This document shows positions 1 to 25,551 of a stretch of DNA of 64,000 nucleotides, in pieces. Both the position numbers and the translations under genes were made by a program. Numbering within the stretch: position 1 is the stretch's first letter; each line of letters begins with the position of its first letter. Source of the DNA: a virus; IMG/VR virus record IMGVR_UViG_3300031823_000001, positions 64,001 to 128,000 of that record; one strand, 5' to 3'. The notes under the pieces are model-generated. The model was not told where the DNA came from, made no database searches, and worked only from the letters and a program-made list of their open reading frames with translations.

Positions 1-21
1 TACCCTCCGCCGGGTGCACTG

Positions 22-95
22 TGGGCGAAAGAGGAATTGAACCTCTGACCTCCCGGTTATCAGCCGGACGCTCTAACCAACTGAGCTACCCGCCC
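22..95 (-). tRNA. tRNA-Ile(GAT)
   Basis: Cloverleaf on minus strand; anticodon loop CTGATAA; T loop TTCAATT. Confidence 0.9.
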
Positions 96-106
96 ATTTA
101 CCTGCG

Positions 107-192
107 CAGAGGATTGAGGTGCCGACCCCCACGGCCCTTCCGGACCGCCGCCGGTTTTCGAGACCGGATGCGCCGCCGGGCGCGAACCCTCC
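107..192 (-). tRNA. tRNA-Ser(CGA), atypical
   Basis: Anticodon arm CCGGT-CTCGAAA-ACCGG, long variable arm; T loop GTCGGCA and D arm non-canonical. Confidence 0.65.
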
Positions 193-277
193 ACTATCTG
201 CGGTCGCCCCTGGGAACGCTTTGCGGCCGGAGCCTTGCACGGGTCGCAGCACCCGTAGCGGGGAGTCGAACCCCACG

Positions 278-362
278 CGGAGAGAGCGAGATTTGAACTC
301 GCGAGGCGTTGCCACCAACACGCTTTCCAGGCGTGCGCCCTAGGCCACTAGGCGACCTCTCC
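278..362 (-). tRNA. tRNA-Ser(GGA)
   Basis: Loop CTGGAAA, long variable arm, G73. Confidence 0.9.
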
Positions 363-524
363 ATGCACGGCCGGATGACCTCCCGGGTTTCCCCTCGGGG
401 GCTCGCTCCCGCCTGCCGCTGCCTTGCCGCGCGTCAGCAGCAGCGCAGTCACGAGCTGGAAGGTCATCCAAGTGCCGGTCCCGGCTTCCGGTGTACCCAG
501 GGTGGGAGCCTGCCGGGACCCGAG

Positions 525-609
525 CGGAGGGAGCGAGATTCGAACTCGCGAGGGCGGACCCAACTGCATTAGCGGTGCAGCGCCATAGGCCGGACTAGGC
601 GACCCCTCC
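525..609 (-). tRNA. tRNA-Ser(GCT)
   Basis: Loop CCGCTAA (C33), long variable arm. Confidence 0.85.
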
Positions 610-710
610 ATGTGCGCTGCTCCCCCAGATCCAGGCTCGGGGTGGTAGCTCCCCGGCATAGTCCTGGAGCGGAGCCGGGGTCGCCAGGGTGCCGCAGCGC
701 GGGCACCCTG

Positions 711-797
711 TGGTGGGCGAAGAGGGACTTGAACCCTCACATCCTTGCGGGATACACGGGCCTGAACCGTGCGCGTCTGCCGTTCCGCCACACGCCC
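711..797 (-). tRNA. tRNA-Leu(CAG)
   Basis: Loop TTCAGGC, long variable arm, CCA encoded. Confidence 0.92.
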
Positions 798-915
798 ATG
801 GAGTGCTCCGCCAACCCGAAGCCCTCTTAGATCTAGCGTCTCGGCAACCGTCATCTCACCAGCCCGGAGACCTCGGGGCTGGCAGCTCGTGGAGCCTGGT
901 GTGTTGGCGACGCTG

Positions 916-988
916 AGCGGATAACCGGGTTCGAACCGGCGACATCCACCTTGGGAAGGTGGCGCTCTGCCTGCTGAGCTACATCCGC
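916..988 (-). tRNA. tRNA-Gly(CCC)
   Basis: Loop TTCCCAA, GCGGATG acceptor, U73. Confidence 0.92.
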
Positions 989-1084
989 ATGACCTGGGGT
1001 CCCCTTCAGGCCGCGTCCGGCCTCGGAGGGCGCTCTGTACCATGGCTCGGGCTTTGGGCCAGCAGAGGCGTGGTACCCCAGTTG

Positions 1085-1156
1085 AGCGGATAACGGGGAT
1101 CGAACCCGCGACCTACACCTTGGCAAGGTGTCGCGCTACCACTGCGCCACATCCGC
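1085..1156 (-). tRNA. tRNA-Gly(GCC)
   Basis: Loop TTGCCAA, U73. Confidence 0.92.
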
Positions 1157-1168
1157 ATGCTTACTGCG

Positions 1169-1241
1169 AGCCCGGAGCCGGATTCGAACCGGCGACCTGC
1201 TCCCTACCATGGAGCCGCTCTGCCGCTGGAGCTATCCGGGC
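1169..1241 (-). tRNA. tRNA-Thr(GGT)
   Basis: Loop ATGGTAG. Confidence 0.88.
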
Positions 1242-1252
1242 ATGTTCTTGCG

Positions 1253-1327
1253 CTGGGCGGCAGGGACTCGAACCCCGAACCTCCGGGACCAAAGCCCGGC
1301 GCTCTGCCAAAGTTGAGCTAACGCCCA
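1253..1327 (-). tRNA. tRNA-Gln(TTG)
   Basis: Loop CTTTGGT, U1-A72, G73. Confidence 0.88.
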
Positions 1328-1332
1328 CTGTG

Positions 1333-1405
1333 AGCCGCCTAACGGATTCGAACCGATGACCCTCCGCTTACAAGGCGACTGCTCTTCCTGCTGAGCTAAG
1401 GCGGC
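1333..1405 (-). tRNA. tRNA-Thr(TGT)
   Basis: Loop CTTGTAA. Confidence 0.9.
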
Positions 1406-1523
1406 GTAGTCCGGGGTACCCTCCCGGTCCAGGACAACCAAGTACCACAGGCACGATGTTCCACAAGCCTGCCGTCCCCGCTCTGCCGGGCTCATATACG
1501 TTTCGCCCGGTTTATCCTGCCCG

Positions 1524-1610
1524 TGTCCGAGGAGGGAATCGAACCCTCACGCCCGTGGGTATGGGCACTAGCACCTCAAGCTAGCGCGGCTGCCGTTACG
1601 CCACCCGGAC
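1524..1610 (-). tRNA. tRNA-Leu(GAG)
   Basis: Loop TTGAGGT, long variable arm. Confidence 0.9.
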
Positions 1611-1866
1611 ATAAGTCAGACCTACACCCGGGCCGTACTGCCCGGCATCCTTCTCCCGCTTGTCCAGGCTCGGCCTGGCGAGTTCGGGCAACCTAACGCG
1701 GCCCCGAGGGGTCTCCCCTGCCTCGGTCTGACGATCATGGTGACGGCCTCAGCCCTAGCCGCCACGGGAGCCCCGCCTGTACCTCGCTCCTTCTAACTGC
1801 CGGACGTTTCCACCCTCCGCTACCCGGACGTATCTGCAAGGCCGAAGCCCTCGGTGGGACACTACG

Positions 1867-1939
1867 AGCCCCGGAACGGAATCGAACCGTTGACCTCACC
1901 ATTACGAGTGGCGTGCTCTGCCATCTGAGCTACAGGGGC
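1867..1939 (-). tRNA. tRNA-Thr(CGT)
   Basis: Loop CTCGTAA. Confidence 0.9.
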
Positions 1940-2016
1940 TGGATGCCGCGCTCGATCCGTCTAAGCTACCGGCCCACGGGCGGACCGGACGGGACTCGAA
2001 CCCGCCTCTACGGCTG
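1940..2016 (-). ncRNA. Circularly permuted tRNA-like element
   Basis: Order on minus strand: GCCGT-AGAG-T arm(GCGGG TTCGAGT CCCGT)-CCGGTCC-G-CCCGT-GGGCCGG-TA-D arm(GCTT..GAGC)-GCGGC; all four stems pair. Confidence 0.75.
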
Positions 2017-2092
2017 CTGGGGTACCAGGTCTCGAACCTGGAACCTCGGGCACCAGACGCCCGCGCTCTGCCATTGATTGAGCTATACCCCA
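2017..2092 (-). tRNA. tRNA-Gln(CTG)
   Basis: Loop GTCTGGT, U1-A72, G73. Confidence 0.88.
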
Positions 2093-2119
2093 ATGCGGCG
2101 TTTACCGTCTGCCGTGGAC

Positions 2120-2203
2120 TGGTGGGCAAGGAGGGGGTCGAACCCTCATGTCGAAGACACCGGGACTTGAGGCCGGCGCGTCTGCCTGTTCCGCCACTCG
2201 CCC
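2120..2203 (-). tRNA. tRNA-Leu(CAA)
   Basis: Loop CTCAAGT, long variable arm, CCA encoded. Confidence 0.9.
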
Positions 2204-2395
2204 AGAGATTGCGGGGCCTGGCCGCCTTCCCCTTGCCAGCTCAGCGGCCAGGCCCGTGTGGACGGGGACCTGCCGCGAGTCCTGCCTGAGGCCTGAGCAC
2301 CGTCGCCCCACGGCCTGGAACCCTGCCGCACGGGTCTCCTCGCGGGTGGCCCGCGCCGCCCATCAGGAAGATACAGCATTTCAAGCCAGCTCGCG

Positions 2396-2468
2396 TGCGC
2401 CGTGAGGGACTCGAACCCCCGGCCCGCTGATTAAGAGTCAGCAACTCTACCGACTGAGTTAACGGCGC
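2396..2468 (-). tRNA. tRNA-Lys(CTT)
   Basis: Loop CTCTTAA. Confidence 0.92.
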
Positions 2469-2469
2469 C

Positions 2470-2543
2470 TGGAGCGGATGACGGGAGTCGAACCCGCGTG
2501 ACCAGCTTGGAAGGCTGGGGCTCTGCCACTGAGCTACGTCCGC
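2470..2543 (-). tRNA. tRNA-Gly(TCC)
   Basis: Loop CTTCCAA, CCA encoded. Confidence 0.92.
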
Positions 2544-2678
2544 ATGTGCCAATTCCACGGCAGTCCTTCATGACGGAACTGCCTCCCTTAACGCAGGGGT
2601 CACAGGCAACCTTCGCGCCCGGGAGCACTTCACCCCGGGCTGCCGCGATGATCCTGAGTGCACCAGGTCGCTGCATCG

Positions 2679-2735
2679 CACGGTCCCGGGGTTCGAACCC
2701 GGCTCGGCCCGTAGGCCTGGCGTCCCGCCGACCGC
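2679..2735 (-). ncRNA. Miniature tRNA-like element
   Basis: GCGGTC/GACCGT acceptor, tiny D hairpin, GGCC-TACG-GGCC in place of anticodon arm, intact T arm CCGGG TTCGAAC CCCGG. Confidence 0.5.
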
Positions 2736-2792
2736 TTTTCCGCCCGGGGCGCTTACCGGGCGGTCCAGGTGACGTCCGTACGCCTGTCACCG

Positions 2793-2866
2793 TGGTCACA
2801 GGGGCGATCGAATCCCCGGCCTGTCCCTTTTCAGGGGACCGCTCGTACCGTCTGAGCTATGTGACC
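2793..2866 (-). tRNA. tRNA-Phe(GAA)
   Basis: Loop CTGAAAA; slightly irregular T stem. Confidence 0.85.
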
Positions 2867-2872
2867 TTGAGT

Positions 2873-2980
2873 AGCGCCCCGGGGGTCGAGCCCGGCCCTG
2901 GGCGAGTGACCACCGCAGGTGCCCGGTTACCCCGGGCCTGCGGCGTCCGCCCGCCCTGTGCGTGCCACCACACCAAGCGC
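2873..2980 (-). ncRNA. tRNA-like element with greatly extended anticodon arm
   Basis: Short acceptor GCGCT/GGCGC, D arm GTGT-GGTGGCAC-GCAC, ~57-nt hairpin, T arm CCGGG CTCGACC CCCGG. Confidence 0.5.
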
Positions 2981-3031
2981 GGTACGCGGGTTGCGGTCCC
3001 GCGCTCCGGTGACCCCTGGCCTGGGGTCCCG

Positions 3032-3106
<75 letters not shown>

Positions 3107-3216
3107 TTGAAAGGCAGTGCACCCGGGAAAGCTGCGGGGTACCCCGCGAACCCGGGACATGCGTCCATGCTTCGGCCGACCACCTGGTTCGTCCAGATTC
3201 CTGCCTCGGCACTGCC

Positions 3217-3291
3217 TGGTCGGGATAGCAGGGGTCGAACCTGCCGCCCCCCGGCCCCCAGCCGGGTGCGCTACCGCTGCGCCATATCCCG
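3217..3291 (-). tRNA. tRNA-Pro(GGG)
   Basis: Loop CTGGGGG, CCA encoded. Confidence 0.9.
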
Positions 3292-3574
3292 AAGCGAATC
3301 CCTGGCAGGGCGTGGCCCTTCACTACCGCCGCACTTACGCCGGGGATTCTGTTTGCTCGGTGCCAGGCCCTAGCGTCGCGATCACTTCCTGGTCACCTGC
3401 ACGGTACTGCCGGACGGCTCTCGCCTCCCCGTGCTGTGGATGCGCCTGCCCTTTTATGAGTCCCCGGCAGGTACAGGGAGGTTAACGCCGCCCACCCGGC
3501 CGCCGCATGGCAACCAGGACTACTCCCCCTTGCGCGAGAGGGCTTCGGGGGCTGCGCAAGCCCCAGGCGACTCG

Positions 3575-3645
3575 TCGGGACAGCCGGGAACGAGCCGGCA
3601 CCTTCCTGCTTCCAGAGCAGGGGCTCTGCATTGAGCTACATCCCG
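3575..3645 (-). tRNA. tRNA-Pro(TGG), degenerate
   Basis: Loop TCTGGAA (C33), T loop CTCGTTC, short D loop. Confidence 0.6.
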
Positions 3646-3750
3646 TCACCCGCGTCCGGAAGCCGTTATCCGGTTATGCATTCGGGCTCGCGGCGCCCGC
3701 CCGGCATCCTCCAGCGCTGAGCCTAGGATTCGCGCTGGCAATCACCAAGG

Positions 3751-3824
3751 TGGAGAAGAGGGGACTCGAACCCCTGACAACCCGGTTGCGGGCCGGGTGC
3801 TCTGCCAGACTGAGCTACATCCCC
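3751..3824 (-). tRNA. tRNA-Ala(CGC)
   Basis: G3:U70, A73, loop CCCGCAA (C33). Confidence 0.85.
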
Positions 3825-4074
3825 AGGTACGCCGACGCGACTGTCTCCCGACGTGGTGCGACGCCGCTGACGTTTGGCTAAGGCAGTCAGCTAGCCCGGT
3901 ATAAGCCGGAAGCAGGCAGAGACCCCGCTGACAGGCGGAGGCGGCACCGTCGCGCCGCCCTGGTCTCCCGAAGAAGTCAAGCGCCCGGATCGCTCTCGGA
4001 CCTGCCTACGGACCTCGCTTGGCTAAAGAACATCTTCGTTGCCTTCCAACTAGTATCGGCTTCCGGCCGATCAC

Positions 4075-4166
4075 GGCAGTGCTCTCGCGTTTGGTTACGG
4101 TTCGCCGCACCCGCTGTTGAGCTATGCCCCCTCAGGGGCACCCGGTCTGGGGCCGGGATCGCTGCC
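4075..4166 (-). ncRNA. Circularly permuted tRNA-like element with expanded D loop
   Basis: GGCAG-CGAT-CCCGG(CCCCAGA)CCGGG-TGCCCC(TGAG)GGGGCA-TA-GCTC..34 nt..GAGC-A-CTGCC. Confidence 0.65.
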
Positions 4167-4169
4167 TCG

Positions 4170-4242
4170 TGGAGCCTATCGGATTCGAACCGATGACCTT
4201 CTCCATGCCATGGAGACGCGCTACCAACTGCGCTAAGGCCCC
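4170..4242 (-). tRNA. tRNA-Ala(GGC)
   Basis: G3:U70, loop ATGGCAT. Confidence 0.92.
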
Positions 4243-4726
4243 ATTGGAGCCGCCCCCACGGTCGCCGGGTAGCCACGAGGGCAGCCGGGCGCGAGGGCGG
4301 ACTCACTGATCCCTAAGATCCTGACGGCCGAGGCCCGGCGCATCCCGCTGGTGTGAACAGCGGGCCGCCTTATCCTCGAAGTGGATACCGCAGCGAGCAT
4401 CGGGATTCTAGCTGGCGAGGTGCCCGGTACAGGACCGTCTTGCGACAGCCCCAGCCTTTAACGGCTGCTGCTCCCCGGGAGTAGCTGCATTGTCTTTCAC
4501 CACGCCGAAATCTGAGCGACCGAGGAGTACCCGCCGGTTTGTTTCATGACTCCACCAGACGGTAAGTGTCCGTAGGTCTCCTAGCCCGGACGGGTCCCCG
4601 GTCGCTGGCGGCAGGTTGGCACCCTGCCGCATTCGTGTTCCGCTGTTGAGATGTCAAATATCGAGCCGGTTACCGTCCTCGGGGCTCTCGCCCGTCGGCC
4701 GGTGGCTGTAGGACCTTGCGGTCCAG

Positions 4727-4798
4727 CAGGGACGGAGGGGCTCGAACCCCCGGCACGCGGCTTTGGAGACCGCTGCTCTACCACTGAGCTACATCCCT
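4727..4798 (-). tRNA. tRNA-Trp(CCA)
   Basis: Loop CTCCAAA, G73. Confidence 0.93.
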
Positions 4799-5091
4799 AT
4801 GCGCTGTTCAGTTGTACCCCGGAAACGGGAGGAGCCGCCTGCGGTTTTCTCCGCTGGCGGCTCCTGGGTGGTCCGGTTTCCCGTTACCCAGGGAGCCCCC
4901 TGCCGCTGCACGGCCTGTCTTCGGGCTGGACGGCCTTCAGGGCATGCCCTGAGAGCCAGCCCTGAGACTGGTAGCCGCGTGCGGTGGAGAAGGTCATCCC
5001 TGTCCGTTTCATGTGGTCTGCTTGCCGCCGGCCCGCTTGAACGATCCCCTCGCGGGGTCCTCCAGAGGCGGTCTCCGGCGGTTATGGGTCA

Positions 5092-5141: not shown

Positions 5142-5369
5142 CTAACTCTGCCGGGGGTCCGGGTTCTCTTCCGCCAGCAGGCGCTTCACCTCGGACTCGC
5201 GGAACCTGCGGTGCCCGCCCGGGGTGCGGACCGACCTGATCCTCGGCGGCTTCGCCGCTGCCCAGCGGGTCACCGTCTTGGGATCGACCCGGAAGAGGGC
5301 AGCCACCTCGCCGGGGGTGAGCAGCGGGTCGTCTTGGCCGTCTTTGGGCACGCGAGCAGGAACAGTCAT
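5142..5369 (-). CDS. bldC: BldC-like MerR-family HTH regulator
   Basis: LLTPGEVAALFRVDPKTVTRWA..RTPGGHRRFRESEV closely matches Streptomyces BldC; SD AAGGAG. Confidence 0.88.
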   Translation of the reverse strand: MTVPARVPKDGQDDPLLTPGEVAALFRVDPKTVTRWAAAKPPRIRSVRTPGGHRRFRESEVKRLLAEENPDPRQS

Positions 5370-7819: not shown

Positions 7820-9364
7820 TTGGTGACGATTCCGTCCTTTACGTCATATCAGCCACCGCAAGTGTATGTAACGGACACTTCGATCCCGATCGTCGTGACC
7901 CCGCTGGTGCCCTCCACGGTCCTGACCCTCGTCGGCCCGGCGCTCGGCTACCGCACCGCCGTCCAGTCGCTGCTGCTCTACGCGGCCACCGCGACCGGCC
8001 TGACCTACACGGGCGTGTTCACCACCGCCCAGTCGGGGCCGCCCGTCGTCACGGCCCCGGTGGTCAGCACCCTGACCGGGACGATCCTCACCGTGGGCGT
8101 GGACTACGAGCTGACGGTGACCGCCGACCCGTCGGGCAACGCCGGGCTGGCCACCACGACGATCACCCGGGTCAACACGAGCACGAACGTCTCCGACGGC
8201 CAGCAGGTCTCGGTCACCTACAACTACGCCGACGCCGGCTACTACGCGCCGCAGGTCTTCTACGACCAGCAGAGCGTCATCAACGCCTACGGGCAGCCGT
8301 TCCTGTCGTCGGTGCCGGTGGCCCCGAACGCCTCCCAGGTGGCGAACCCGCTGTCGTGCGCCGCGCAGATCGCGTTCAGCAACGGGGCGACCACGCTGAT
8401 CTGCGTGGCCTGCAACCCGGCCGACGGGTCCCTGGAGCAGCAGCTCACCGCCGCGTACGCCAAGGTGGCGACCACCCCGGCGGCGACGATCGTGGTGCCC
8501 GTCTTCACCGACGACCTGACCCCGAGTTCGGGCACGGTCGCGGCCGAGGCGCAGTCGCTGGCGCAGGCGCTGAACACCGCGATGGTGACCGCGTACAACG
8601 ACGGGTTCCCCAGGATCGGCTTCTTCGGCCTGCCGAGGAACTACAGCGAGGGCGACATCCCGTTGCCGACGCTGGCGGCGAACATCGCCAGCCGCCGCCT
8701 GGTGCTCGCCTACCCGGAGATCGTGCTGCTCTACAACACGGCGACGAGCACGACGTTCCAGGCGTCGGGCTGCTACCTGGCGGTGGCGCTCGGCGCGGTC
8801 CTGTCGTCCCTGCCGGTCAACACCGGCATCACCAACCAGACGGTGCGGGGGACCGGCGGCCTGCCGCAGGCCGAGGTCACCCTGATGACCAACGCGTTCA
8901 TGAACACGGTCGCGGCTTCGGGCGTGTCGGTGTGCTCGCTGAACTACGCGGGGGCGCTGACCTGCCGCCAGGGCCTGACCACTGACATGTCGGCGATCAA
9001 CCGCCAGGAGATCTCGGTGGTGCGCCAGTCCGACTCGCTGTTCGTGGCGGTCAGCCAGGGCCTGATGAACGCGGGCCTGATCGGCCAGCCGATCACGGCG
9101 AACACGGTCAGCGCGGTGCAGGAGGCGGTTCTCGGCATCCTGGAGGGCGCGGTCACCCAGCAGGTGATCATCAGCTACACGAACCTGACGGTGCAGCAGC
9201 AGGCGTACCCGGGCGGCAACCCGACCATCATGAGCGTGACTTTCCAGTACCTGCCGGCGATGCCGCTGAATTTCATCACCGTGCAGATGTCGATCGACCT
9301 CTCGGGCGGCCTGGTGGCCACCCAGTCGCAGCAGAACGCCTCGGGCACCGGGACAGGCGCCTAA
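7820..9364 (+). CDS. Tail sheath protein
   Basis: N-term YQPPQVYV, C-term RQGLTTD..EISVVR..FQYLPAMPLNFITV. Confidence 0.9.
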   Translation: MVTIPSFTSYQPPQVYVTDTSIPIVVTPLVPSTVLTLVGPALGYRTAVQSLLLYAATATGLTYTGVFTTAQSGPPVVTAPVVSTLTGTILTVGVDYELTVTADPSGNAGLATTTITRVNTSTNVSDGQQVSVTYNYADAGYYAPQVFYDQQSVINAYGQPFLSSVPVAPNASQVANPLSCAAQIAFSNGATTLICVACNPADGSLEQQLTAAYAKVATTPAATIVVPVFTDDLTPSSGTVAAEAQSLAQALNTAMVTAYNDGFPRIGFFGLPRNYSEGDIPLPTLAANIASRRLVLAYPEIVLLYNTATSTTFQASGCYLAVALGAVLSSLPVNTGITNQTVRGTGGLPQAEVTLMTNAFMNTVAASGVSVCSLNYAGALTCRQGLTTDMSAINRQEISVVRQSDSLFVAVSQGLMNAGLIGQPITANTVSAVQEAVLGILEGAVTQQVIISYTNLTVQQQAYPGGNPTIMSVTFQYLPAMPLNFITVQMSIDLSGGLVATQSQQNASGTGTGA

Positions 9365-9782: not shown

Positions 9783-9976
9783 GGCACGATCGCCTGCCGC
9801 TCGTGCTCGGCGGCCGTCTGCTCTCGGACGGCGTCGGCGACGTCGAGCAGTGCCCAGCCGACGGCGGTGAGCGCGCCGGCGATGTCTCCCAGTCCGACCC
9901 GGCCGGTGGCTCCCAGGCCTTCCTCGACGGCGTGCAGCATGGCGTCGGCTGCCGCGCGGGGGTGCTGGTTGGTCAT
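9779..9976 (-). CDS. Hypothetical protein
   Basis: SD AGGAGG, coupled to neighbours. Confidence 0.65.
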   Translation of the reverse strand: MTNQHPRAAADAMLHAVEEGLGATGRVGLGDIAGALTAVGWALLDVADAVREQTAAEHERQAIVP

Positions 9977-10245
9977 GATTCCTCCTGGCTGGGCTTACGG
10001 TCGAATTCCGGGCGGCTGACCCCGGCCGGCCACTTCTCCTGGCAGCCGCGCCTTTGGCATCGCAGGATCACCGGGACTGACCCCGCCTGGACTGTCGTGT
10101 CGGTGCGTTCGAGGTCGAACTTGCTGGTGGCCAGTATGGTGCGCGAGCAGGAGGCGAAGATCTTGTCGCGGACTATGTGGTAGCGGCGCGCTGTGCCGGG
10201 GTGGTTGTAGCTGGTGGCGTCGCGCATCGCCGCCCGGTAGCTCAT
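9973..10245 (-). CDS. Hypothetical protein (Cys/His, possible Zn binding)
   Basis: SD AGGAGG, ATGA overlap. Confidence 0.65.
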   Translation of the reverse strand: MSYRAAMRDATSYNHPGTARRYHIVRDKIFASCSRTILATSKFDLERTDTTVQAGSVPVILRCQRRGCQEKWPAGVSRPEFDRKPSQEES

Positions 10246-10565
10246 GATTCCTCCTGGCCGGCGGCGAACCGGGACCTGATCCTGGTGCGGATCTCCCGCG
10301 AATCCATTACCTGCTGCCCGGCTTCCCGCCAGGTGACAGGGACGGCCCCGGCCTTTATGGCGGCGAGGCGCTTGGACTCGGTGACGTCGTAGTGCTGCAT
10401 GGGCCAGGGCTTGTCCTGGAACCAGGAGCGGTGCAGCCCGATCTTCGCGGCGAGGGCGTGCAGTTCCTCGATGTCGTCGTCGGGCCCGACGGTGAGGTGG
10501 GACCAGCGGGCGGTGATGCGGCCGACGGTGGCCTTCTGCCGCCAGTCGTCTACGTAGACGGTCAT
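10242..10565 (-). CDS. DUF4031 family protein
   Basis: MTVYVDD..WSHL..EELHALAAKIGL.RSWFQ..HYDVT. Confidence 0.85.
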   Translation of the reverse strand: MTVYVDDWRQKATVGRITARWSHLTVGPDDDIEELHALAAKIGLHRSWFQDKPWPMQHYDVTESKRLAAIKAGAVPVTWREAGQQVMDSREIRTRIRSRFAAGQEES

Positions 10566-11440
10566 GATTCCTCCTGGTCGGTGACGTGGGCGTAGGAACG
10601 GCGGCTGAGGATATTGCCGAGGGCGGCTTCCTTGATGCCGAAGCGCCCGGCTAGAACGGAGCGCTTCATTCCCTCGGCCCCGAGCCGCCGGATCTCGCGG
10701 ATCTGCTCGTCCGTGAACCGCGCATCGCTGCGGCGCGAGCGTGCCTTCGGCATGTCCCGGCAGATGATCGAGATGTTCGAGTGGTGAACGCCGAACTGCA
10801 ACCCGAGTTCGTGGATGCTCTTCCCCTCGGCTCGCAGGCGCCTGATCTCTGCGGCTTGAGGTGCGGTGAGCTTCCCGCCTGACATGCGGCGCTCGTGGGG
10901 AGCGATCGGCGGAGGATCGGTGATCCATCCCCAGCTCTTGCCCGAGAGCGCGAGCTGGACAGTGTCGAGCTTGCGGTCCAGTTCGGCGGCGATCTTCGGC
11001 GCACTCAGGCCGCCCCGGTAGAGAGTGCGGGCCTTGCGCACTAGGTCGGGACTCAGTGCGTCCTGGCCGCCGATCCCGAGAGACCGGCGCCTGATCGCCT
11101 TGTCGCGGTTATTGTCCGCGACGCTCCCGTCCCTGATGTGCAGCGGACGGCAGCAGGGCGGGTTGTCGCAGTCATGCCTTCCGATCACCGGCATGTACCC
11201 GTGCACCAGGTAGAAGGCGACTCTCTGGGCGTTGACTGTTCCCTTGCGTCCGGTGAGCGGGTTGATCATGCTGACGGCCCCGTAGTTCCCTCTCGGGCGC
11301 TTCCGGGTGGCTCTGAGGAACTCCCAGCAGGACTCGTCGTCGTCGATGATGTTGACCTTCGGCCAAAACTGCCTGTCGGGACCGGGAAGAGTTGTGAGCT
11401 GGCCGTCTCGGAGGACCTGCTCGTACTCGATGATGTTCAC
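10562..11440 (-). CDS. HNH homing endonuclease with C-terminal HTH repeats
   Basis: FWPKV..CWEF..YG..AQRVAF..RHDCDNPPCCRPLH..DN; three HTH-like repeats; likely leaderless GTG after TAGTAT. Confidence 0.85.
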   Translation of the reverse strand: MNIIEYEQVLRDGQLTTLPGPDRQFWPKVNIIDDDESCWEFLRATRKRPRGNYGAVSMINPLTGRKGTVNAQRVAFYLVHGYMPVIGRHDCDNPPCCRPLHIRDGSVADNNRDKAIRRRSLGIGGQDALSPDLVRKARTLYRGGLSAPKIAAELDRKLDTVQLALSGKSWGWITDPPPIAPHERRMSGGKLTAPQAAEIRRLRAEGKSIHELGLQFGVHHSNISIICRDMPKARSRRSDARFTDEQIREIRRLGAEGMKRSVLAGRFGIKEAALGNILSRRSYAHVTDQEES

Positions 11441-11499: not shown

Positions 11500-12059
11500 G
11501 TGACCACGGCCTCCACGCAAGCGAGAGTAGTCGGATCAGGCTACACTGTGCTGTCATACAACAGCCAGCCTATCGCTTACTGTGAGGGCTGGTTAATTGT
11601 GAGGATAGTGGGCAACGCGCTTTCAGCGATGTCGGCCAGCCTTATCAATTCATCCAGCCCATTGGTGCCGAGCACCCGGTCGAGATTGCCACGTCGCGCG
11701 TGATCTCCGGCGGCACGGTGATGATCACCATCCGCGAGTTGTGGAACCAGCCCGTGTGGTGGCAGCTCGCCGGGCTGACCGGCACCTGGGACATGGTGGA
11801 CATCTTCACCGCCCTGGCGGCCAACCCTAACTACGTCACCGCGTCGATGATTATCAAGCCGCCCGGTACGGAAAGCAACTCGGGTTCCTGGCGAGGCAAG
11901 GTATACCAGAACGTGACAGTCGTAGACATTAACGACGGCGAAACGGTTACCGTCGGGGCTCTGGCGGTCACTAAGGGTATTACCTTCGCGTACACCCACT
12001 ACGTGCCCCTCAACAGCAACCAGTACGGCGCTGGCCTGCTGGGAACCGCCACCGCCTGA
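11500..12059 (+). CDS. Tail tube protein, frame broken by 8-nt insert 11593-11600 (join 11500-11592,11601-12059; ~183 aa)
   Basis: TQARVVGSGYTVLSYNSQPIAYCEGW continues as EDSGQRAF..HPVEIATSR..IRELWNQPVWWQL in another frame; position after sheath. Confidence 0.8.
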
Positions 12060-12159: not shown

Positions 12160-12495
12160 GTGGCGCAGAAGGTACAAGTTGACCAGGTAAGCGACCTGGA
12201 CGGGGTGCCGGCCGACGAGACAGTGAAGTTCTCCCTGGACACCACCGACTACGAGATCGACCTGTCCGCTGTCCAGGCGCAGGAGATGCGCGCCGGGCTG
12301 GCCCCGTTCGTGACGCATGCCCGGAAGCGGCCCGGCCGCCCGCGACGCGGCAAGCGGCGGCCCAGCCGCCCCGACCTGCCGGACATCCGCACGTACGCCA
12401 GGGCCAGGGGATACGACATCAACGAGCGGGGCCGCGTCCCCACCCAGATCATCGACGAGTACGACGCGCTGAAGGGCACCGACGCCGCCCGGTAA
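12160..12495 (+). CDS. lsr2: Lsr2 family nucleoid-associated protein
   Basis: MAQKVQV..DLDG..ETVKFSLD..YEIDLS; IRTYA..GY.INERGRVP; SD AGGAGG. Confidence 0.92.
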   Translation: MAQKVQVDQVSDLDGVPADETVKFSLDTTDYEIDLSAVQAQEMRAGLAPFVTHARKRPGRPRRGKRRPSRPDLPDIRTYARARGYDINERGRVPTQIIDEYDALKGTDAAR

Positions 12496-18672: not shown

Positions 18673-18740
18673 GCTGAGATTATAGCTTTTCTTGATAATC
18701 GCCCGCTACCCCTTAACCCCCGGAAGCAGCGGAGGTGCTC

Positions 18741-25038: not shown

Positions 25039-25551
25039 CTAGGACGGCAGCGGGTTGAGGTAGGCGTGCTCTCCGAACAGCTCCAGGGCAGCCTCGTTGT
25101 AGGCGCGGGCGCAGGCTTCCTGGCTGTCCGAGTGCAGGATGGTCCGAGTCTTTCCTTTTATGGTGATGCGGGCGCGCCACTTATTCATCTGCTTGTCCCA
25201 TCCGACCCCCTTGTACTTAGAGGTGTGCCGCGTAAGGTCCGGTCTTCTGTTCTTGTCATTGTGCAGGCCGTCGCGCAGGTTGCGGCGGCGGTTGTCCAGC
25301 GTGTCATGGAAGATGTGATCCGTGCGCGGGTATCCGGTGATCATCGAGTGCATGGAGATGATCTTGTAACCTCCGCCGATCTGACGGATGGCGGTGCGAG
25401 CGTACGGCCCGTTGGTACGTCCGTTGCGCTTGATTTCAAGCACGTGTCACCTGTGCCTGATGACCAGCTCGTAATCTTCGACGTCGATTCGTGCGACTCT
25501 CCCGGCTGCCTTCTTGCCGGACAGGGGAACCTCGATATGCGCCGTCGCCAA
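25039..25551 (-). pseudogene. HNH-AP2 endonuclease with in-frame TGA at 25447-25449
   Basis: TTG start with SD GGAGG: MATAHIEVPLSGK..IDVEDYELVIRHR*HV..MH..DHI..LDNRRRNLR..SKYKGVGW..KWRARI..ARAYN. Confidence 0.8.

Follow-up and report, generated by a model that had tools for sequence, protein, structure and literature searches.

How does a phage make its tail tube when the only gene for it is broken near its start? The question is raised by a window of 64,000 nucleotides (nt), bases 64001-128000 of the 161,740-bp IMG/VR phage genome IMGVR_UViG_3300031823_000001 (G000 in the comparisons below), in which the predicted tail tube gene is interrupted at positions 11593-11600 by 8 nt that begin with an in-frame TTA. 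The genome has direct terminal repeats, a completeness rating of 100% and 68.8% G+C; judged from its sequence, it belongs to a soil actinophage of about 162 kb, a myovirus. We consider it probable that ribosomes cross the break by UUA-triggered translational bypassing, and that the site is carried on a homing-endonuclease cassette. Natural translational bypassing is known from few systems: gene 60 of phage T4 and its relatives, the mitochondria of Magnusiomyces and the still-debated terminase of phage phiHau3.

Results

The tail tube gene breaks off at a TTA codon

The frame that opens at GTG 11500 reads to YNSQPIAYCEGW (ending AYCEGW, with TGG at 11590-92), meets TTA at 11593-95 and then drifts to a TGA at 11701-03. 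The tube sequence resumes at GAG 11601 in another frame as EDSGQRAF...IRELWNQPVWWQL and runs to TGA 12057-59; this frame is open back to 11586, just past a TGA at 11583-85. The gene thus falls into three parts:

11500..11592, + strand: tube segment 1, 31 codons from GTG to the proposed take-off codon TGG (11590-92); 96% identical to residues 2-29 of the intact L005 tube
11593..11600, + strand: coding gap TTAATTGT, 8 nt, with TTA at 11593-95 and TGT at 11598-600, the proposed near-cognate landing triplet
11601..12059, + strand: tube segment 2, 152 codons plus TGA, resuming at GAG; 92% identical to L005; PHROG 2756

A preliminary description of the window had reported this change of frame across TTA, the two-of-three match of TGT to the take-off TGG, and a -1 frame that is open from 11586; translations and letters bear out all three. 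It was also right that the mechanical list of open reading frames (ORFs) catches only the last 119 amino acids of the tube (GTG 11700-12059). The predicted product of a hop has 31 + 152 = 183 amino acids. A separate Logan assembly, from run SRR9648404 (possibly the same sample), has the same broken layout, with the HNH gene described below, a 260-nt gap and the 119-residue ORF.

Sheath synteny, size and homology to annotated tubes all mark the interrupted gene as the predicted tail tube gene of a myovirus. Its product is 35-39% identical to gp112 of Rhodococcus phage E3 (annotated as tail tube) and to Finch gp43, and proteins of cluster C mycobacteriophages are also homologous to it; in E3, Finch and the cluster C mycobacteriophages the sheath gene directly precedes the tube homologue. 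Pfam and NCBIfam searches gave no match for the tube gene, and PDB sequences searched with a tube profile gave none either. An AlphaFold2 model of the intact L005 tube, built from 9 sequences, had a mean predicted local distance difference test score of 44, too low for a fold search. The preliminary description had named an intact second tube gene as a finding that would speak against its reading; the 161,740-bp genome was searched and has a single tube locus.

Removing exactly 8 nt restores the conserved protein

Related loci were collected from IMG/VR by a protein-guided scan (15 loci) and a profile scan (13 more), and 29 tube genes were compared. Twenty-three of them, 64-100% identical to the L005 reference, are uninterrupted and read C-E-G-(W/V/I)-E-D-S-G-Q across the junction, which has a constant length with E directly after W, V or I. 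When 11593-11600 is dropped, neither more nor less, the window gene aligns without gaps at 88-89% identity to G001 and G002 (89% over 85 residues for G001), and the spliced junction, YNSQPIAYCEGW followed directly by EDSGQRAFSDVG (CEGW/EDSGQR), is identical to that of G001. Any skip of a length other than 8 nt requires gaps, and in the DNA alignment the 8 nt are not present in G001, G002 or G005. Because the alignment is gapless only with the 8-nt skip, the junction holds zero extra residues; the preliminary description had left it at zero or three.

Three extra residues are what a -1 (or +2) frameshift near TGG-TTA would produce: the ribosome would read GTT AAT TGT and make CEGW-VNC-EDSG (CEGWVNCEDSGQR), a protein of 186 amino acids. 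In favour of such a slip, no stop interrupts the -1 frame from 11586 on, P-site slippage is known to be stimulated when the A-site codon is hungry (PMC10732093), and a Shine-Dalgarno-like run, GAGGG, lies 2 nt 5' of TGG. However, an X XXY YYZ heptamer is missing from the stretch 11584-11600, pairing would be poor both for tRNA-Trp on CUG and for tRNA-Gly on GGG, and the three residues would be added to a junction of invariant length in the 23 intact homologues. We regard a frameshift as improbable, and the variants of the break described below tell further against it.

Both segments of the gene are under strong purifying selection. The ratio of non-synonymous to synonymous substitution rates (dN/dS) is 0.05-0.19 between spliced interrupted genes and intact relatives, compared with 0.10 between intact genes. 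The break lies within the first 40 codons counted from V8; over this stretch the window and L005 differ at 26 codons, in every case synonymously and never non-synonymously. The interrupted tube genes are therefore not drifting but held under purifying selection, and with these values neither decay nor an assembly error is credible. In a metagenome-assembled IMG/VR record one might suspect an error of sequencing or assembly, or a defective phage with a pseudogene, yet this record has terminal repeats and the rating of a complete genome, with no second tube gene to take over. An 8-nt insert is untypical of read error, the Logan assembly repeats the layout, and the tube genes of five other metagenomic genomes have breaks that also start with TTA. 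Random decay would not begin every gap with TTA and end it with a repeat of the codon before it. A dead gene or an artefact is thus the explanation to which we give the least credence of all, and the preliminary description's judgement that random decay is unlikely holds for seven breaks in tube genes and two in other genes.

Every break in the tube gene opens with TTA

The remaining 6 of the 29 tube genes are interrupted. Together they have seven breaks at five positions, and at each the next in-frame codon is TTA:

Window: TGG-TTAAT-TGT, 8 nt
L008 (G003): TGG-TTAATGC-GAG, 7 nt, landing TGC
L009 (G004): TGG-TTACCTGG-GAG, 8 nt, perfect TGG landing
L013, first break: TGT-TTAC-GAG
L013, second break: TTT-TT-ATC
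L007: TCT-TTAGGAGCCTAG-TCT-GGT, a 15-nt hop from TCT to TCT
L015: CAG-TTACTTAG-TTC (CAG-TTACT-TAG)

Three of these (8, 7 and 8 nt) fall at the same W/E junction. Their middle bases and their length vary, and only the 5' TTA and the 3' TGN before GAG are kept; a hop to a landing triplet can therefore account for all three, unlike a fixed frameshift. The 7-nt variant in L008 would need a different shift, and TAA stands in its +1 and -2 frames. In L007 the gap has an in-frame TAG and another TAG in the +1 frame, the downstream part lies in frame 0, and only the 15-nt TCT-TCT hop restores the protein. Given the stops in L008 and L007, simple slippage cannot explain all of the sites. A further IMG/VR scan for TGG-TTA variants at the W/E junction returned only the two already found.

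The L013 gene has its two TTA breaks 20 codons apart (L013:2985-3058), with a zero-frame stop between them, so that both events would be needed to read it through.

Could the two segments instead be made as separate proteins, a 31-residue N-terminal peptide and a C-terminal protein initiated on its own and acting in trans, or could the C-terminal part alone be used? Insertions of homing nucleases can yield two functional ORFs, as in T4 genes 39 and 60 (bioRxiv 10.1101/2022.08.31.505936). Here, however, the downstream frame has no ATG, GTG or TTG from 11586 until GTG 11700, a restart at 11700 loses 33 conserved residues of that frame, and GAG 11601 has no ribosome-binding site in front of it. 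Gaps as short as those of L013 and G003 (2 nt and 4 nt) could not accommodate restart signals, and the position of the break shifts among relatives (five positions), unlike a domain boundary. We find a split gene very hard to believe.

The baseplate J gene and a tail gene of G003 are broken in the same way

Comparison of five complete genomes (G000, G001, G002, G003 and G005) revealed two further breaks of the same kind, one in the baseplate J gene of the window and one in a tail gene of G003:

25595..25756, + strand: baseplate J segment 1, 54 codons, with CAA as the take-off codon at its end
25757..25763, + strand: baseplate J gap TTAGCAA, 7 nt, made up of TTA, G and a perfect CAA landing (TAT CAA-TTAG-CAA-TAC)
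25764..27422, + strand: baseplate J segment 2; Pfam Baseplate_J, E=2.1e-26; PHROG 6 baseplate wedge
L043:19123 (G003 genome 119123), - strand: tail gene after the tape measure, 2-nt insertion, CTC-TT-ACC

With its 7 nt removed, the baseplate J gene aligns without gaps to four genomes (LAYQ/YDINSM), and in the DNA alignment no other genome has the 7 nt. Baseplate J thus bears out the claim that TTA interrupts independent essential genes of this phage. The CTC-TTA of the G003 tail gene can be read as a +2 move in which tRNA-Leu(GAG) leaves CTC and re-pairs with CTT; this break has no nuclease gene beside it.

Three rules describe the nine breaks, which lie in three tail genes and have gaps of 2, 4, 7, 8 or 15 nt. 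First, the first unread codon in the upstream frame is TTA at all nine. A random triplet at this base composition is TTA with a probability of about 0.004, and chance is excluded as the source of TTA-first breaks. Second, the last three bases of every gap repeat the take-off codon. The match is complete at five of the nine sites: TGG/TGG (L009), TCT/TCT (L007), CAA/CAA (baseplate J), TTT/TTT (second break of L013) and, by way of one tRNA, CTC/CTT (G003). At the other four it extends to two of three bases: TGG/TGT (window), TGG/TGC (L008), CAG/TAG (L015) and TGT/TAC (first break of L013). Random triplets would match at two or more bases at all nine sites with p ~6e-8. Third, once the gap is removed the frame is open over its full length, 176-183 amino acids in the tube genes.

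Other candidates fell away. CCC-TTAA-CCC at window 18713 proved on alignment to lie between genes, in a motif that resembles a promoter and stands ahead of a ribosome-binding site. Genome positions 129250, 13475 (-), 115989 (-) and 153015, considered as internal breaks, were gene ends, lacked homologues or lay in wrong-frame ORFs.

TTA is almost absent from the coding sequence of the phage

In codon-score gene calls for G000 (186 genes, 46,535 codons), TTA occurs 3 times in frame versus 154 times out of frame. Two of the three lie 6-8 codons before a stop and the third in a spurious ORF over a tRNA gene; the genome-wide count suggested in the preliminary description thus finds not one ordinary internal sense TTA. 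Within the window the figures are 0 in frame versus 60 out of frame (17,685 codons). The next rarest sense codons (CAA, CTA, AAA, TTT, ATA and AGA) occur 29-51 times. Each of the other four genomes has 0-8 in-frame TTA codons, mostly near ORF ends, and not one occurs among the 4,985 codons of the 29 spliced tube genes. The tube homologue of L157 (IMGVR_UViG_3300032282_006300) has G+C of only ~0.4 at third codon positions (GC3) and still no in-frame TTA, so TTA avoidance is not just a by-product of high G+C. Such avoidance resembles that of Streptomyces, in which the decoding of UUA requires the bldA tRNA.

The phage does not supply a decoder of its own. A minus-strand cluster of 40 tRNA genes (window 1-4800, genome 60963-68798) includes decoders of ATA, AGA and AAA, and the leucine tRNAs of G000, G001, G002 and G005 have the anticodons CAG, GAG and CAA; Leu-UAA is missing. 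The cluster is also without Leu-UAG, Ser-UGA, Val-UAC, Ala-UGC and Tyr. G003 has a single tRNA gene. A BldC-family regulator gene (window 5142-5369, - strand; NCBIfam NF033787, 91 bits, cut-off 77) and an Lsr2 gene (window 12160-12495) indicate that the host is presumably an actinomycete.

Several of the TTA triplets in the genome come from an AT-rich intergenic repeat, TTACAG(C/G)TTTTCTTGATA, found at window 5127, 18690-18712, 45600 and 45618 (-) and at genome positions 19851, 19869 (-), 46539 and 46915 (-). It is conserved upstream of ribosome-binding sites in G001, G002 and G005, and it looks like a phage promoter.

At three gene ends (window 40453, genome 129250 and genome 153015) TTA aligns with the TGA stop of relatives. 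Readthrough of the TTA at window 40453 would fuse two genes in frame, and the one at genome 153015 sits in a conserved GTTACC direct repeat. The idea that TTA serves as a stop codon was not supported: in a control, other one-step neighbours of stop codons (TGG, TGT, GGA and others) align with stops as often.

Homing-nuclease genes accompany the inserts

Each of the two broken genes of the window stands head-to-head with a free-standing endonuclease gene:

10562..11440, - strand: free-standing HNH endonuclease (HNH_3 and HTH domains), 59 nt from the start of the tube gene
25039..25443, - strand: second free-standing endonuclease, HNH-AP2 (PHROG 99 HNH, E=2.2e-25; Pfam AP2), next to baseplate J

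The first scores 19.4 bits against Pfam HNH_3, below the cut-off of 24.8 bits, and above the cut-off for HTH_38, and matches PHROG endonuclease and HNH families; its ORF is open to ATG 11557, and homology begins near residue 27-45. Homologues lie beside the tube gene in L008 (70% identity), L007 (36%), L017 and L019 (43%) and L155. In L009 the HNH gene beside the tube is in two fragments, a decayed copy, and L015 has a different nuclease, HNH-AP2, at the tube-adjoining position. G001, G002 and G005 have no HNH gene there. Overall, an HNH gene or a remnant adjoins the tube gene in 5 of 6 interrupted cases versus 3 of 23 intact ones (Fisher p=0.0025, a value that ignores the kinship of the loci and overstates their independence), and different nuclease lineages accompany different insert positions.

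The second locus repeats the pattern. In G000 the HNH-AP2 gene is inserted between the two baseplate genes. Both this gene and the 7-nt gap of baseplate J occur only in G000 among 10 genomes, and neither is found in G001, G002, G003, G005 or L056-L060.

The inserts come with a change in codon choice. Over tube codons 1-70, GC3 is 0.60-0.76 in the eight HNH-bearing loci and 0.61 in L013, which is broken and has no HNH gene, compared with 0.81-0.94 in the remaining high-GC loci (the low-GC L157, at 0.41, was set aside). In the rest of the tube gene the high-GC loci have a GC3 of 0.81-0.99. This local synonymous recoding (GC3 0.66 versus 0.85) is consistent with an insert that blocks cleavage by the cassette's own nuclease. 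To judge from these patterns, the insert most likely travels with the neighbouring HNH gene as a cassette.

The same hop could have another purpose. In this alternative the insert is mainly a regulatory sensor, tube and baseplate are made only while the host has no charged tRNA-Leu(UAA), that is, during vegetative growth, and the link to HNH genes is incidental. A model of this kind was proposed for the phiHau3 terminase (PMC10732093), and the present phage encodes a BldC-family regulator and no tRNA-Leu(UAA). Against it, most close relatives have no insert at all, insert positions differ among lineages, and the inserts track a nuclease gene at two separate loci, with local synonymous recoding. 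Such tracking and recoding are the signature of a selfish cassette rather than of a conserved regulatory device. We hold a mainly regulatory role to be unlikely, though worth keeping in mind; the functions of sensor and cassette are not mutually exclusive.

Discussion

Proposed mechanism

UUA-triggered bypassing on a homing-endonuclease cassette is the reading we favour. The observed architecture, comparative pattern, selection and HNH co-occurrence are the basis on which we infer a stall, a hop and its efficiency, a host and a nuclease target. Ribosomes would translate the tube mRNA from GTG 11500 to UGG (Trp31) and there meet UUA, a codon that the phage nearly never uses and that would be read by none of its 40 tRNAs. 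The A site would stay empty if, as we presume, the host is an actinomycete in which a tRNA-Leu(UAA) like that of bldA is limiting. Peptidyl-tRNA-Trp would then detach, the mRNA would slide by 8 nt, and the anticodon would re-pair with UGU 11598-600 at two of three bases. GAG 11601 would be decoded next, giving CEGW-EDSGQR and a tube of 183 amino acids colinear with its uninterrupted homologues. The preliminary description had proposed just such a bypass site with a near-cognate landing, and the gapless alignment and the sister variants support it. Re-pairing of the P-site tRNA downstream, while UUA waits in the A site, would cover every site in the series; the 2-nt cases (TTT-TTA and CTC-TTA) would be its shortest form, +2 re-pairing on a cognate triplet that overlaps the take-off codon.

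On this proposal, both the insert and the synonymous, AT-enriching changes in the first ~70 codons would belong to the neighbouring divergent HNH gene. Together they most likely destroy the target of the nuclease in its own genome, while the intact alleles of relatives would stay cleavable.

Several points weigh against this interpretation. The landing UGU is only near-cognate for tRNA-Trp, with a C:U pair at the wobble position. Virions contain the tube protein in very large amounts, which would call for an efficient hop, and no stimulatory signal is common to all sites. The window gap, alone among the sites, has a stable and significant hairpin 5' of it and including it (11557-11561 with 11597-11601 and 11563-11571 with 11586-11594; -36.2 kcal/mol, z -2.6), whereas no stable 5' hairpin was found at baseplate J or L015, two sites that do not share the GAGGG run at the window site either. 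The link to HNH genes, beyond the kinship of the loci, is imperfect: L013 is broken and no HNH gene or remnant was detected in the 1.25 kb upstream of its tube gene, and L017, L019 and L155 have an HNH gene and recoding and no insert. Finally, the profile scan is unable to recover genes that are broken at both of its search patterns.

We can extend the proposal to the clade. UUA may effectively be an unassigned codon there, and several unrelated free-standing HNH nucleases may use it as a general safe harbour for inserts of 2-15 nt, running from TTA to a copy of the previous codon, which would destroy the nuclease's own target and be hopped without elaborate RNA signals. For this wider statement we see the chances as about even.

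Relation to known systems

The closest precedent is the large terminase (g6/g7/g8) of Streptomyces phage phiHau3, for which UUA-triggered bypassing was proposed (Smith et al. 2013; Antonov et al. 2023, PMC10732093), as it was for the terminases of StrepC.1 and of an S. catenulae prophage (PMC10732093). The phiHau3 gene has two 10-nt inserts that start with UUA; reporter and mass-spectrometry data support bypassing, with a full-length product seen in Streptomyces and a junction peptide identified by mass spectrometry in E. coli with UAA replacing UUA (PMC10732093). Only 3 of 100 terminase genes surveyed contain such inserts (PMC10732093). In the phiHau3 record, JX182369, the sites read GGC-TTACTCC-GGT-AAG and TCT-TTAACGG-TCC-ACG.

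In both systems a short non-coding block opens with an in-frame TTA, and intact homologues have the sequences on its two sides joined without a break. The last triplet of the block would pair with the tRNA of the codon before TTA, perfectly at some of the present sites and only as a near-cognate in the window. Both phages are high-GC actinophages with extreme avoidance of TTA. In Hau3 the sequence KGWG precedes UUA and may act as a nascent-peptide signal (review, PMC5009743); here EGW stands in that place, and the shared Gly-Trp is a resemblance only. The two systems also differ. The phiHau3 gene is a terminase gene, whereas ours are those of a tail tube and of baseplate J; phiHau3 is a 50-kb temperate siphovirus, whereas the present phage is a predicted myovirus of ~162 kb with about 40 tRNAs. 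Gap lengths are 7 or 10 there and 2-15 nt here, with many breaks at five positions of one gene. The tight link to a free-standing HNH gene and a recoded 5' tract is not reported for Hau3 in the literature examined. Experiments exist for phiHau3, whereas the present sites are known from sequence alone. By its architecture, the window site appears to belong with UUA bypassing of the phiHau3 type.

A second comparison is with T4 gene 60 and its nuclease MobA, as described in a preprint (bioRxiv 10.1101/2022.08.31.505936). There, self-cleavage is prevented by the insert, which adjoins a homologous tract that has been recoded (Bonocora et al. 2011, cited in the preprint), and some phages retain the insert after loss of the nuclease. 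As in that system, an HNH homing nuclease here adjoins an essential gene with an untranslated insert hopped by ribosomes (a hop that is proposed in our case), insert and recoded tract lie beside the nuclease gene, and the cassette is present or absent among close relatives. The insert is also kept after decay of the nuclease, in L009 here and in T4 itself there. Unlike gene 60, which belongs to a topoisomerase context, the genes considered here are different targets and have no sequence relationship to it. The T4 gap is 50 nt with a GGA-UAG take-off, that of the window 8 nt at a rare sense codon, and no take-off stem-loop or nascent-peptide signal of the T4 kind is common to the present sites. 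Here the nuclease gene is intergenic and on the opposite strand, and its target gene is not split by it, and several unrelated HNH lineages (HNH_3-HTH and HNH-AP2) occur with different insert positions. The window cassette would thus be an analogue of gene 60/MobA and not a member of that family, working like a miniature version of it without kinship.

Two further systems, both cited in PMC10732093, can be compared. In the hungry-codon bypassing and short hops of E. coli (Gallant and Lindsley 1998; Weiss et al. 1987), the A site is empty at a starved codon and the peptidyl-tRNA re-pairs a few nucleotides downstream at a matching triplet, much as we propose. Those hops are low-level errors or take place in engineered constructs, whereas here they would be needed for major virion proteins. 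The Byp elements of Magnusiomyces capitatus mitochondria (Lang et al. 2014) are likewise many short bypassed inserts in essential genes, with matched take-off and landing codons, and apparently mobile. They differ in being mitochondrial and 27-55 nt long with hairpins, and they have neither a TTA rule nor a paired nuclease.

Significance

What is new here is the genes, the phage lineage, the variable gap lengths and the many parallel sites; a nuclease link has not been reported for UUA bypassing in the literature searched. The nine sites, with their cognate and near-cognate landings, offer natural variation for defining the rules of short hops at a hungry codon, and they lend independent comparative support to the phiHau3 proposal. 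If UUA bypassing is indeed tied to homing-endonuclease immunity, the gene 60/MobA arrangement would have a second, convergent origin; if the safe-harbour reading is true, that counterpart would be minimal, modular and repeatedly evolved. Efficient natural bypassing would then be recurrent in phage genomes and not confined to a handful of curiosities. Gene callers break such essential genes (here, 119 of 183 tube codons were called), and annotation pipelines for high-GC phages should therefore test for micro-gaps that begin with TTA.

Neighbouring genes

The genes around the tube follow a common order, starting from the sheath:

7820..9364, + strand: tail sheath gene (PHROG 2839 tail sheath, E=4.6e-41), with synteny in L005, L006, L010 and others

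In relatives without the cassette, the end of the sheath gene and the start of the tube gene are ~20-30 nt apart. In the window a minus-strand block lies between them, consisting of HIT, two small ORFs, DUF4031 and the HNH endonuclease; after the tube gene come the Lsr2 gene, chaperone-like ORFs and the tape measure. Three consecutive minus-strand ORFs of the block 9973-11440, ending at 9973, 10242 and 10562, all finish in ...QEES. This suggests that one sequence, combining a ribosome-binding site with a stop/start overlap, has been reused at each junction, and that genes of the sheath-tube block are translationally coupled.

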